A stretch of DNA of 3,993 nucleotides, taken from IMG/VR virus record IMGVR_UViG_2740892230_000039; one strand, 5' to 3'. Below are positions 75 to 3,993 of the stretch, piece after piece (position 1 is the stretch's first letter; each line of letters starts with the position of its first letter). Made by a program: the position numbers and the translations under genes. This DNA is from a virus. Its lineage: Duplodnaviria > Heunggongvirae > Uroviricota > Caudoviricetes. The notes under the pieces were generated by a model. That model was not told where the DNA came from. It ran no database searches and worked only from the letters and a program-made list of their open reading frames with translations.

Positions 75-1361
75 TTACCCCGCTTTCTTATGGGGCATAC
101 ATGGGACACTTTCAGATAGTCTTTTGTTAAGGAGTTCTATCTGTTCGTGATTGTTGTCTTTCATCCATGCTCCGTAAACATTGAATACCATTTGTGCGTT
201 TGTGTGGCCCATCTGGCTTGCGATAAAACTAGGATTAGCTCCTGCGGCAAGTGACCAGCATGCATAAGTATGCCTGGATTGGTACGATTTTCTGTGTCTC
301 AGACCTGCGCGTTTTAAGATACTTGTCCATGACTCCCTGATGGAGTCAACCTTGTAGTGAGGTCCGGACAACTGCTGCTGTTTTGTTACCTGAGGACGAA
401 AAACAAAAGTGCATTTATGCACAGCAGTTCTCCCATATTCCCTCTGCTTCACCTCTACAGAATGTTGCTTTCCAAGCATGGTCATTTCCGCCTGGCTTTT
501 AAGAGCATCAATAGCTGGTTGAACCAGATGAATTGTCCTTCCGGTGCCTGCATCGGTTTTTGGTGGAGTGAATTCGCCAAGTTTTGTATAATTTCTACGG
601 ATGGTTATAGTCCTTGCTTTAAGGTCTATATCTTCCCATGCCAGCGATACCAACTCCCCGTGACGAATACCCGTGTATACAGCGAGAATCCACAGGTTTT
701 TTGTTTGTTGATGACGGCAAGCCTCAATAAAACGAATAAATTCGTCACGGGTGAGAGGATCTGGTTTTACCTTGGACTTTTTTAAGGGAGCCAGACCGTT
801 AAATGGGTTTCCTGAGGTATAACCATTATCTGTTGCAAATTGAAACATTCCAGCTATGGTTGTCATATAGTAGTTTACCGTGACCACTGAGCGCCCTTTT
901 ATGGAAGAAGTCTTTCCATTAGAAAGCTTTTGGTAACCGGTCAACAAATCTCTCCTTACGAAAAGTAAATCCTCTTTTGTTATGGATGAAACCAGTTTTT
1001 TTTCACCTAACATTGGTAACATGTTTTTAATTACTGACTGGTAACGGTTAAGTGCATTCGCACAAATCTCAATTTTCTTAAGGTCCAACCATTTTTCCGA
1101 AAGTGCCTTAACGGTTATCTCTCTTTTTCCCAGACCAAAGTGTTTCAGGTTAGGGGAATTAGGGAACTGCGCGGCGTAGTCGAAACTCCCCATTCTGATT
1201 GCAAAACAAACGGAAGTGCGAAGTTCACCAGCGATCTTCCGGTTTTTGGCTGTGTCAGGAACACCGAGGTTTTCTCTGACACGTTTGCCATTATAGTGAA
1301 ACCATATACGGAGTGATCCTCCATGGTTTTCAACGCCTGTCGGGTATGATGCGTTACTCAT
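75..1361 (-). CDS. int: Tyrosine-type site-specific recombinase (phage integrase), 428 aa
   Basis: Long uninterrupted minus-strand ORF. N-terminal arm-binding-like region (PTGVENHGGSLRIWFHYNGKRVRE). C-terminal catalytic-domain motifs in the expected order: Arg in AVYTGIRHGEL, second Arg in SYQSRHTYACW, His in QMGHTNAQ, catalytic Tyr in FNVYGAW. GGGAGG lies 4 nt upstream of the ATG. An excisionase-like gene sits immediately upstream on the same strand, the classical xis-int arrangement. Confidence 0.9.
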   Translation of the reverse strand: MSNASYPTGVENHGGSLRIWFHYNGKRVRENLGVPDTAKNRKIAGELRTSVCFAIRMGSFDYAAQFPNSPNLKHFGLGKREITVKALSEKWLDLKKIEICANALNRYQSVIKNMLPMLGEKKLVSSITKEDLLFVRRDLLTGYQKLSNGKTSSIKGRSVVTVNYYMTTIAGMFQFATDNGYTSGNPFNGLAPLKKSKVKPDPLTRDEFIRFIEACRHQQTKNLWILAVYTGIRHGELVSLAWEDIDLKARTITIRRNYTKLGEFTPPKTDAGTGRTIHLVQPAIDALKSQAEMTMLGKQHSVEVKQREYGRTAVHKCTFVFRPQVTKQQQLSGPHYKVDSIRESWTSILKRAGLRHRKSYQSRHTYACWSLAAGANPSFIASQMGHTNAQMVFNVYGAWMKDNNHEQIELLNKRLSESVPCMPHKKAG

Positions 1362-1394: not shown

Positions 1395-1649
1395 TTAACC
1401 GGAACTTGCATTTTTGGCACCTGGTTGTTTCTGGTTTTCGATCCATCGCATAATTTCTTCGATGTTGTACAGGCATTCACTGTAATGCCCAGGATCACCT
1501 TCTACAGCGTAATGGCGGTATTCTTTTCCCTGCATCCATGACTTTCTTCTGGCCCGCTCGATGGTGCCGGGCTTTAGCCCTGTTGATGCAATAAGGACTC
1601 TCTCCGTACACCATTTGCTGGGGGTTATCTGATAGATGATTGTCTGCAT
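1395..1649 (-). CDS. xis: Excisionase-like recombination directionality factor, 84 aa
   Basis: Small basic protein directly upstream of int on the same strand with a 33-bp gap. The W...ST...R...W..GKEY pattern (KWCTERVLIASTGLKPGTIERARRKSWMQGKEYRHY) resembles excisionase-like winged-helix proteins of enterobacterial prophages. Assignment is from memory of the family and gene position, not from a search. Confidence 0.6.
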   Translation of the reverse strand: MQTIIYQITPSKWCTERVLIASTGLKPGTIERARRKSWMQGKEYRHYAVEGDPGHYSECLYNIEEIMRWIENQKQPGAKNASSG

Positions 1650-2052: not shown

Positions 2053-2139
2053 TTATCCCCAGCGGAAAAGCGAATACAGAATAAATGCCACCGCTATTGC
2101 AACTCCAACTGCGGTGAATGCTTCAGGCCAATTCATCAT
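2053..2139 (-). CDS. Hypothetical 28-aa hydrophobic peptide (MMNWPEAFTAVGVAIAVAFILYSLFRWG), predicted single transmembrane helix; not in the supplied ORF track
   Basis: Hand-translated. AGGAGGTGA lies immediately upstream. The ATG at 2139-2137 overlaps the TGA stop of the upstream 240-aa ORF (2138-2136) in an ATGA arrangement. A 19-residue uninterrupted hydrophobic stretch is followed by RWG. Stop TAA at 2055-2053, 4 nt before the next start. Confidence 0.35.
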   Translation of the reverse strand: MMNWPEAFTAVGVAIAVAFILYSLFRWG

Positions 2140-2858
2140 TTCACCTCCTGCGGCGGTTCTGGTAGCTGCATCCAGTGGGTTACCTCTTTGAGATACAGGT
2201 CTTCGCCATCACCGTCATCCCAAGTGGGCTTGCCATCATTAAACCAGTCGCCATATACGCCGACCTGAGTGTTGGGGATGTTTGGTGGGTAGTTGTTTTT
2301 AAAGTCAGCTGCTAACACATAGCATTGTCGCTCTCCCATTTCAGGCATTCGCTCACTACAGCTTATCCAACCATCCGGAGTTACCGGATAGTTGCCATTC
2401 ACAAGGTCAGCTCGAACATATAGCGTGTCATCATGGTGTTGATTGTGGCTGCACCACGTTAATTCGCTTAACTNNNNNNNNNNCTCAGGCCACTGGCGCT
2501 CCATGTTGATCTTCAATTTATCTTCCATAGCAGCGGTAATTTCAGCATCGCTGATGCCAGCACGGCGCTGTGCATCCCACAACAGAAACTGCATATCAGC
2601 CCACTCGCTAAGATCGTCTGNNNNNNNNNNCGTTTGCAGCCAGATATGGGCTGGCGCATCTTGGCAAGGTGTATTAACTGGCAACTTGTAAGTTTGGCTT
2701 ACAGGTTCTGCACTATCAGCCTTGCGGCGCTCCTGTAGCTCGCGCAGAGCCGCTACAACATAATGGCTATTGTGCTGGTCAGCCCACAGAATGAGCCGAA
2801 TCAACGTTGCATTTGAAACGTATTCGTCTGTTAGTTTGCTATTGGTAAAAGTGGTCAT
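2136..2858 (-). CDS. Ea22-like prophage protein, 240 aa as translated through two N-runs; C-terminal W/D/G/P-rich region reminiscent of DUF551
   Basis: Minus-strand ORF with AAGGTGA 7 nt upstream of the ATG. The N-terminus MTTFT parallels MTTIT of the upstream paralog. An internal 45-aa module (DDLSEW...ERQWPE) is shared with the upstream gene. The C-terminal region (YPVTPDGWISCSERMPE...GVYGDWFNDGKPTWDDGDGEDLY...WMQLPEPP) matches my recollection of the DUF551 domain found in Ea22-like phage proteins. The true length is uncertain because the ORF is interrupted by N-runs at 2474-2483 and 2621-2630. Confidence 0.55.
   Translation of the reverse strand: MTTFTNSKLTDEYVSNATLIRLILWADQHNSHYVVAALRELQERRKADSAEPVSQTYKLPVNTPCQDAPAHIWLQTXXXXDDLSEWADMQFLLWDAQRRAGISDAEITAAMEDKLKINMERQWPEXXXXLSELTWCSHNQHHDDTLYVRADLVNGNYPVTPDGWISCSERMPEMGERQCYVLAADFKNNYPPNIPNTQVGVYGDWFNDGKPTWDDGDGEDLYLKEVTHWMQLPEPPQEVK
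2474..2483. other. Run of 10 N (gap or masked bases)
   Basis: Directly visible in the sequence. Lies immediately left of repeat copy A. Confidence 1.
2484..2620. repeat. Copy A of a diverged 137-bp direct repeat (coding module), bounded on both sides by 10-N runs
   Basis: Aligns without gaps to 2886-3022, with 131 of 137 positions identical. The six mismatches are at 2484, 2499, 2522, 2550, 2556 and 2586. Confidence 0.95.
2621..2630. other. Run of 10 N (gap or masked bases)
   Basis: Directly visible in the sequence. Lies immediately right of repeat copy A. Confidence 1.
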
Positions 2859-2870
2859 AGCTATTTCACC

Positions 2871-3251
2871 TTAATNNNNNNNNNNTTCAGGCCACTGGCG
2901 TTCCATGTTGATCTTCAATTTATTTTCCATAGCAGCGGTAATTTCAGCATCACTGATACCAGCACGGCGCTGTGCATCCCACAACAGGAACTGCATATCA
3001 GCCCACTCGCTAAGATCGTCTGGTTCGGCTGCGGCTTCCAGTGCCTCTTTTGAGAGGTGTTTCAGTGGACCAATGGGGCCAACGCAGCCAAATGTGGAGT
3101 CAGACCATTTGGCATGCTCGTGGCGAATCTGTTCGCGTTCCAGTGATGCCAGTGCAATTCGTGCCAGTTCCATTTGTTCGCCACGAGTAAGCCCGTTTTC
3201 AAGCGGATTTTTAATGAACAATTCAATACGTTCTTTGGTAATAGTGGTCAT
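2871..3251 (-). CDS. Ea22-like prophage protein, upstream paralog, 126 aa as translated; C-terminus undetermined because the last four codons fall in an N-run
   Basis: The ATG at 3251-3249 overlaps the TGA stop of the upstream 69-aa ORF (ATGA). GAGGA lies 7 nt upstream. The N-terminal part is charged and helical-looking (ERIELF...EQMELARIALASLEREQIRHEHAKW), followed by the shared DDLSEWADMQFLLWDAQRRAGISDAEITAAMENKLKINMERQWPE module. The apparent stop at 2873-2871 comes directly after the 10-N run, so the real end is unknown. Confidence 0.5.
   Translation of the reverse strand: MTTITKERIELFIKNPLENGLTRGEQMELARIALASLEREQIRHEHAKWSDSTFGCVGPIGPLKHLSKEALEAAAEPDDLSEWADMQFLLWDAQRRAGISDAEITAAMENKLKINMERQWPEXXXX
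2876..2885. other. Run of 10 N (gap or masked bases)
   Basis: Directly visible in the sequence. Lies immediately left of repeat copy B, between the two Ea22-like genes. Confidence 1.
2886..3022. repeat. Copy B of the diverged 137-bp direct repeat, preceded by a 10-N run
   Basis: Aligns without gaps to 2484-2620. Corresponding mismatch positions are 2886, 2901, 2924, 2952, 2958 and 2988. Confidence 0.95.
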
Positions 3252-3457
3252 GTGTTAATCCTCAAAACTTTATGCCCGGGCGCAAAAGTACGTGTTTTGT
3301 CTTTGCTTATTCGCCACCCGTCTTTACGGGCCTCTTTTGCACAACCAGACCATGACGTACCGATATACTCACCGAAGTCTGGCACTGGATATACACCTTC
3401 CGTACACTGGCGACAATCACAATAGAGATGCATGGTGTAACTTGCAGCGATAGCCAT
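3248..3457 (-). CDS. Hypothetical small Cys-rich protein, 69 aa (C-x-C-x2-C then a distal Cys and two His)
   Basis: Strong ribosome-binding site (AAAGGAGAG, then a 4-nt spacer, then ATG). The start is 1 nt after the stop of the upstream 62-aa ORF, and the stop overlaps the downstream start. Possible metal-binding motif HLYCDCRQC ... SGC ... PGH. Confidence 0.5.
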   Translation of the reverse strand: MAIAASYTMHLYCDCRQCTEGVYPVPDFGEYIGTSWSGCAKEARKDGWRISKDKTRTFAPGHKVLRINT

Positions 3458-3458
3458 A

Positions 3459-3647
3459 TCACTCTCCTTTAGTCCGCAAGTAGTTTTTCCAGCGGTTTTG
3501 CGCCGCGCTGGGCTTTTTGCAACAACTGTGACCCATCACCCCGCAACACCCCATCAACCTCACTCGTCTGTTACTAATCCTCACCCATCGCCAGACCCCA
3601 ACACCGTTTCTGCGAGCTAACAGAATCTTTGCTTTACGGTTTTTCAT
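3459..3647 (-). CDS. Questionable ORF, 62 aa, Arg/Trp/Gly/Cys-rich (contains GCCGVMGHSCC); coding status uncertain
   Basis: For coding: AGGAGAG 7 nt upstream of the ATG, and the stop is 1 nt before the next gene's ATG. Against: the ORF lies in a strongly purine-rich, degenerately repetitive stretch (C-rich on the plus strand, about 3530-3606) that would yield G/W/R/V codons by chance, and it contains a terminator-like hairpin. Confidence 0.3.
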   Translation of the reverse strand: MKNRKAKILLARRNGVGVWRWVRISNRRVRLMGCCGVMGHSCCKKPSAAQNRWKNYLRTKGE

Positions 3648-3819
3648 CGTTTTGCTCTCCTGCGTCTCTTTGCTGCTCGTCGTGCCGCTGCAATACCGGT
3701 ATGGCGGCGCTTTGGTGCCGGGATGATGTTGTCAGCTATCAGGACATGTGGCTTTGCAATTAGCGCAGAAGCCCAAAAACGAGTCGGGTACGGTAACAAG
3801 CCGATACATGCCACACGCA

Positions 3820-3993
3820 CTACTCACCCTCTTTGATGCGAATGCCTGCGGCGCGTGGCACATTAACTTCCACGATGCGCACTGTTGGTTTGTACATCTC
3901 AATCGCTGTCAGCCAGTCAGCTCCTGTCATGCGCTTTTCCGCATCGCCATTAGTCCACTGAACCGGTACACCAATAGCCTTCATCGCGATTTC
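3820..3993 (-). CDS. 3' end of a gene entering from beyond the right edge (C-terminal 57 aa: EIAMKAIGVPVQWTNGDAEKRMTGADWLTAIEMYKPTVRIVEVNVPRAAGIRIKEGE); product not recognised
   Basis: Hand-translated minus-strand frame, open from the window edge at 3993 to a TAG stop at 3822-3820. Same orientation as the rest of the operon. Too short to appear in the supplied ORF track. Confidence 0.45.
   Translation of the reverse strand, partial: EIAMKAIGVPVQWTNGDAEKRMTGADWLTAIEMYKPTVRIVEVNVPRAAGIRIKEGE

Follow-up and report, generated by a model that had tools for sequence, protein, structure and literature searches.

A 69-residue protein of the lambdoid exo-xis region belongs to a widespread, uncharacterised phage family with a predicted structural metal site

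Lar and Ral act on type I restriction-modification systems. Lar (RalR) of the Rac prophage is a small Cys-rich protein of ~65 aa encoded by a lambdoid prophage near xis/int, and in these respects it resembles the 69-aa protein described here. A second likeness is offered by Ea8.5 of phage lambda (PDB 2M7A; hybrid homeodomain/zinc-finger), a small zinc-binding protein of unknown function that is encoded between ea22 and xis and is named among the exo-xis genes (PMC8614690). Exo-xis genes are dispensable in the laboratory (PMC8614690), and members of the region other than the 69-aa ORF affect lysogenisation and induction (PMC3824215, PMC8614690). A search of the literature on this region (orf60a, orf61, orf63, orf73, ea22, ea8.5, orf55 and gp05) retrieved no study of the 69-aa ORF. 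Small Cys-rich proteins appear to be recurrent in lambdoid early regions; a further example is YdaE of the Rac prophage of E. coli K-12 (56 aa, annotated as zinc-binding, adjoining kilR; locus L017, positions 5839-6009), which by eye looks unrelated to PHROG 926, the family discussed below.

The window, that is, the whole stretch of 3,993 nt that was analysed, contains an integrase gene and an excisionase gene, beyond which lie several small genes and then the C-terminal end of an ead/Ea22-like gene. The 69-aa gene is located between the ead/Ea22-like gene and xis/int, a position that corresponds to the early-left exo-xis region of a lambdoid prophage and bears out its placement in the early-left accessory region by a preliminary description of this DNA. 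The relevant features are as follows.

75..1361, minus strand: integrase gene
1395..1649, minus strand: DUF1233 excisionase gene
2871..3251, minus strand: downstream gene with a PF04447 dATP/dGTP pyrophosphohydrolase domain, its ATG overlapping the stop codon of the 69-aa gene (ATGA)
3248..3457, minus strand: 69-aa gene, a member of PHROG 926, encoding a predicted Zn(Cys3His) mini-domain
3272..3274, minus strand: codon 62 (His), from family conservation and covariation the putative fourth ligand, within the conserved knuckle A/C-P-x-H/C (residues 59-62)
3404..3421, minus strand: codons 13-18 (C-D-C-R-Q-C), the putative N-terminal metal knuckle with predicted ligands C13, C15 and C18, from family conservation and covariation
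3459..3647, minus strand: upstream 62-aa ORF matching phrog_1380, its TGA 1 nt ahead of the ATG of the 69-aa gene; unannotated in RefSeq
3464..3469, minus strand: Shine-Dalgarno sequence AAGGAG, 6 nt 5' of the ATG (3457..3455), read from the sequence

The product of ORF 3248..3457 (MAIAASYTMHLYCDCRQCTEGVYPVPDFGEYIGTSWSGCAKEARKDGWRISKDKTRTFAPGHKVLRINT) has Cys at positions 13, 15, 18 and 39 and His at positions 10 and 62, confirming the small Cys-rich 69-aa protein described previously, and is identical to WP_000951713.1, a protein named 'hypothetical protein'. On the minus strand its start is preceded by AAAGGAGAGTGAT-ATG, with AAGGAG ending 6 nt short of the ATG, in keeping with the excellent ribosome-binding site noted before. 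The DNA is 100% identical to that of a prophage of E. coli 55989 and O104:H4, and the 210 bp of the gene were found in 585 of 5426 complete E. coli genomes, at up to six copies per genome; this share of ~11% includes O104:H4 and Stx phages of O157:H7. Comparison with the copies in the Stx phages Min27 (in which the counterpart is pMIN27_08) and VT2-Sakai gave a dN/dS of 0.18 (dS 0.44, dN 0.08). ORF 3248..3457 is a real gene under purifying selection: together with this ratio, the strength of its match to PHROG 926 (E = 3.6e-36) and the breadth of its distribution in 427 phage records and 327 clusters of related proteins place it beyond chance.

Neither a promoter-like site on either strand nor a terminator-like site on the strand of the 69-aa gene was found between positions 2800 and 3993 of the window, which is why the gene is taken to belong to a long operon that runs leftward; an Rfam scan of the window returned nothing relevant. 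Translational coupling had been proposed on both sides of the gene. This holds downstream, given the ATGA overlap with 2871..3251, and is probable upstream, where a gap of 1 nt separates the gene from ORF 3459..3647. In VT2-Sakai, Sasha and TL-2011c the upstream ORF is uninterrupted and differs by an in-frame indel, its ends being conserved and its middle variable. Upstream coupling is thus probable rather than certain, since this ORF matches phrog_1380 and stays open in divergent phages though RefSeq has no annotation for it, which renders its status as a gene uncertain. The surrounding segment of ~360 bp (3458-3819) carries no RefSeq gene and two Arg/Trp-rich minus-strand ORFs, namely 3459..3647 itself and 3644..3820 (phrog_13831). 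Elsewhere in the window, a 161-nt direct repeat of 93% identity (2460-2620 and 2862-3022) falls in the PF04447 parts of the adjacent paralogous genes 2136..2858 and 2871..3251 (both on the minus strand) and could serve as a recombination substrate inside the accessory region; runs of N at 2474-2483, 2621-2630 and 2876-2885 lie inside or beside it. A hydrophobic ORF of 28 aa (MMNWPEAFTAVGVAIAVAFILYSLFRWG; 2053-2139, minus strand), the start of which overlaps the stop of a DUF551 gene as ATGA, may encode a small membrane peptide.

The 69-aa gene is typical of the phage family to which it belongs, one that is catalogued yet uncharacterised. Its product matches PHROG 926 over residues 1-68 (profile positions 1-68 of 69), all of the 95 relatives tested also match this profile, and the product keeps the core motifs of the family (Y-C-D, A-R/K-x-x-G-W and A/C-P-x-H/C) in the form of Y12, C13, D14, A43, R44, G47, W48, P60 and H62. 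The 427 phage records were retrieved by tblastn (lambdoid and Stx phages, Klebsiella siphoviruses, the Ackermannviridae Vi01 and Det7, Rogunavirus and Dickeya phages), and the 327 clusters (50% identity) by a profile search of 1.84 billion representatives at E ≤ 0.001; the family is carried by lambdoid, Ackermannviridae and Drexlerviridae phages, Klebsiella siphoviruses and metagenomic phages. Its proteins are labelled hypothetical in every source and none has a Pfam domain. The preliminary description could assign no named family by eye, and this still stands, PHROG 926 being a family to which no function is assigned. One NCBI record encodes a tandem duplication of the 69-aa protein in a single ORF (P0046, 134 aa), which may be real or an assembly or frameshift artefact.

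At every locus examined, the family gene is surrounded by tight arrays of small early or accessory ORFs, frequently with 4-nt overlaps, and this is true of temperate and virulent phages from several families. The settings comprise lambdoid exo-xis regions, the nin-like region of a Klebsiella prophage inside a plasmid, a phage-plasmid, Vi01 (in which the gene adjoins a dCMP deaminase gene), Rogunavirus and metagenomic phage contigs of 8 to 153 kb. Conjugative leading regions were considered as the setting of the plasmid matches and rejected, these matches being phage-plasmids or prophages inside plasmids. An all-against-all comparison of fifteen loci identified Ea22-like and DUF550/DUF551/PF04447 proteins as recurrent neighbours within the enterobacterial lambdoid mosaic and found no conserved neighbour outside it, which points to common ancestry, not functional linkage.

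Conservation within the family suggests how a metal would be held. In an alignment of 124 diverse members, C13, G47 and W48 each occur in 123, Y7, Y12, A43 and P60 in 113-121, G33 and L11 in 109 and D14 in 103. At position 62, 74 members carry His and 48 carry Cys (122/124 His or Cys); at position 18, 97 carry Cys and six carry His, most of the others having a His a few residues away in the loop. Cysteines 15 and 59 replace one another: 56 members have only C15, 64 only C59, four both and none neither (Fisher test 6e-31, uncorrected for phylogeny). When mutual information was scanned free of assumptions, no long-range pair of the 2016 scored higher than 15-59 (z = 6.7); next came 15-61, 59-62, 15-62 and 15-18, although common ancestry inflates these statistics. 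On a neighbour-joining tree, which is poorly resolved because the sequences are so short, the number of independent C15/C59 switches comes out only tentatively at 28, compared with 40 when the labels are shuffled. A single ligand supplied by either of two distant segments, and always by one of them, is as expected of a shared four-ligand metal site. Four conserved Cys/His positions (C13, C15 or C59, C18 and H/C62), with compensating exchange between two of the segments, suggest a zinc mini-domain, and point to C13, C15, C18 and H62 as the predicted ligand set of the 69-aa protein. The protein very probably holds one structural metal ion, most likely zinc; an iron ion or an Fe-S cluster may occupy the predicted site instead. 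The possible zinc-binding motif proposed earlier is therefore probable as regards its conserved ligands, whereas the inclusion of the distal Cys39 and of His10 is not upheld: position 39 lies within a helix and is Cys in 75 of the 124 members, and position 10 is usually Asp.

Two AlphaFold runs, based on 11 and 95 sequences, agree with one another (mean pLDDT 81.6 and 82.3, respectively) and predict a strand (7-12), a short helix (16-19), a second strand (28-33), a helix (36-45) and short strands at 49-50 and 57-58. The model thus describes a putative beta-beta-alpha-beta-beta domain with the predicted metal site at one end. A zinc-ribbon or treble-clef fold had been put forward as the structure to look for, and the model is neither in classic form. 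Foldseek comparison of the model with the PDB gave nothing below E = 0.68, and comparison with viral models gave two matches at E ≤ 0.0014, both to uncharacterised relatives. Among solved structures, nothing matches this predicted fold or the putative site in which one ligand migrates.

Searches with the sequence likewise yielded no characterised homologue. The 69-aa protein has no Pfam match of any kind at E ≤ 1, no NCBIfam match and no match to a PADLOC-DB model of defence or anti-defence at E ≤ 1. A Pfam scan of 95 relatives produced scattered weak zinc-knuckle matches (L32p and fn2 among them) but no family that recurred consistently. When PDB sequences were searched with the single protein or with the profile, only fibronectin-II repeats of MMPs and a borderline segment of plant ZF-HD homeodomains came up. 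The latter identity (E = 0.0015, PDB profile) was rejected because the match is short, covering one helix and the G-W-R-I motif, and because the predicted fold contains a single long helix instead of three. Homology to lambda Ea8.5 was also rejected, with an hhalign probability of 1.2% and only the CPxC knuckle aligning.

Taking all this together, the 69-aa product is probably, though by no means securely, a small non-enzymatic, zinc-stabilised protein that is encoded in the early-left operon and binds a conserved host component through its basic half, acting as a dispensable takeover or accessory factor. With a domain of ~60 residues, and with conserved Cys, His, Gly, Trp, Tyr, Ala and Pro that look like core or ligand positions, the protein is not plausibly an enzyme. 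The gene would be expressed from the early-left (pL, exo-xis) operon upon infection or induction. In its product, one structural metal ion, most likely zinc, would hold the fold together. Its ligands would be Cys13, Cys15 and Cys18, located where the first strand ends and in the short turn that follows, and His62, immediately past the last strand; the ion would thereby clamp the C-terminal tail onto the N-terminal hairpin of the beta-beta-alpha-beta-beta domain. Binding would be stoichiometric and would proceed through the basic half, to which the helix at 36-48 (with the conserved motif A-R/K-x-x-G-W), the hairpin at 49-62 and the tail rich in Lys and Arg all belong. A nucleic acid or the acidic surface of a protein would be the target, in either case a conserved component of the host, and the role would be that of a dispensable host-takeover or accessory factor. 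The mean net charge of the family is +2.65, the N-terminal half being acidic and residues 36-48, 49-62 and the tail basic; the basic charge is moderate, and a quarter of the members carry no net positive charge. Zinc as the metal, the binding mode and the target are inferred, and the choice between a nucleic-acid and a protein target is a guess.

If the target were a nucleic acid, the protein could be a small zinc-finger regulator that places its basic helix and tail on DNA or RNA and tunes phage or host expression, for instance the balance between lysis and lysogeny. The basic C-terminal half and Lys/Arg-rich tails found across the family, the effects of other exo-xis genes on lysogenisation and induction (PMC3824215, PMC8614690) and the local match to the helix-1/GWRI segment of ZF-HD homeodomains (E = 0.0015) are consistent with such a role. 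However, that match is short and borderline, the predicted fold is neither a homeodomain nor any known DNA-binding fold, and members of the family are also found in strictly virulent phages, for which no decision on lysogeny arises; this occurrence argues against a role limited to that decision, and a regulator of this kind appears unlikely.

An anti-restriction or anti-defence factor, which would bind, neutralise or re-program a host defence enzyme, is quite improbable. Its appeal derives from the setting of the gene alongside early genes of a phage accessory region, from its presence in many unrelated phages and from one relative, P0089, in which a C-terminal zinc ribbon resembling Rac RalR/Lar is fused to the family domain (BLASTP E = 7e-4, a single pairwise comparison). 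This fusion is found on eight metagenomic contigs; at locus L018 (positions 4001-4399), genes for an Rnl1-type RNA ligase and a PIF1-like helicase come directly downstream, and the phage additionally has a separate gene with a weak match to PF14354 (Lar_restr_allev), the Lar family in Pfam. It is an isolated hint at anti-defence, as the single such case among 327 clusters. The loci compared have no recurrent methyltransferase or known anti-defence neighbours, and the protein is basic, not an acidic DNA mimic. The restriction-alleviation function of Lar/Ral type suggested at the outset found no backing in Pfam (E ≤ 1) or PADLOC, and homology to Rac RalR/Lar was rejected at an hhalign probability of 0.45%; as for Ral, which presumably has a family of its own in Pfam, the absence of any Pfam match at E ≤ 1 applies equally. 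That the ORF is conserved without a function of its own, as selfish or neutral mosaic cargo, or that its Cys cluster binds no metal, would accord with the lack of a known phenotype and the laboratory dispensability of exo-xis genes (PMC8614690) but is very hard to reconcile with a dN/dS of 0.18 and with retention across very distant phages of an invariant core and compensating ligand changes.

The preferred reading, that of a zinc-stabilised accessory factor, can be extended to a more ambitious and distinctly speculative proposal, that PHROG 926 represents a structurally new class of zinc-clamped, beta-grasp-like mini-proteins in which one metal ligand has migrated between a knuckle at the N-terminal end and one at the C-terminal end, and which inhibit a conserved host machine or defence system. 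If true, this would define a new host-takeover or anti-defence family common to lambdoid phages, Ackermannviridae, Drexlerviridae and many uncultured phages. The family spans very different phage groups, yet has no Pfam model, solved structure or assigned function. The four predicted ligand residues, the conserved basic face and the natural Lar-like fusion provide starting points for experiments, and the identity of the target would add a piece to the picture of the exo-xis region, which is poorly understood and has an influence on prophage induction in Stx phages. The 69-aa protein is nonetheless one more small phage protein of unassigned function, which is not surprising in itself, and is a reasonable, not an exceptional, candidate for follow-up.

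With respect to the systems it most resembles, the protein differs in architecture. Lar combines a CPFCG...CxxC ribbon with a C-terminal EA..WN helix, whereas the 69-aa protein is predicted to display CxCxxC...H on a beta-beta-alpha-beta-beta domain, and its predicted fold is also dissimilar to that of lambda Ea8.5. In the order of its strands and helix, the model is instead GB1-like, resembling the beta-grasp domains of the GB1 and protein L type.
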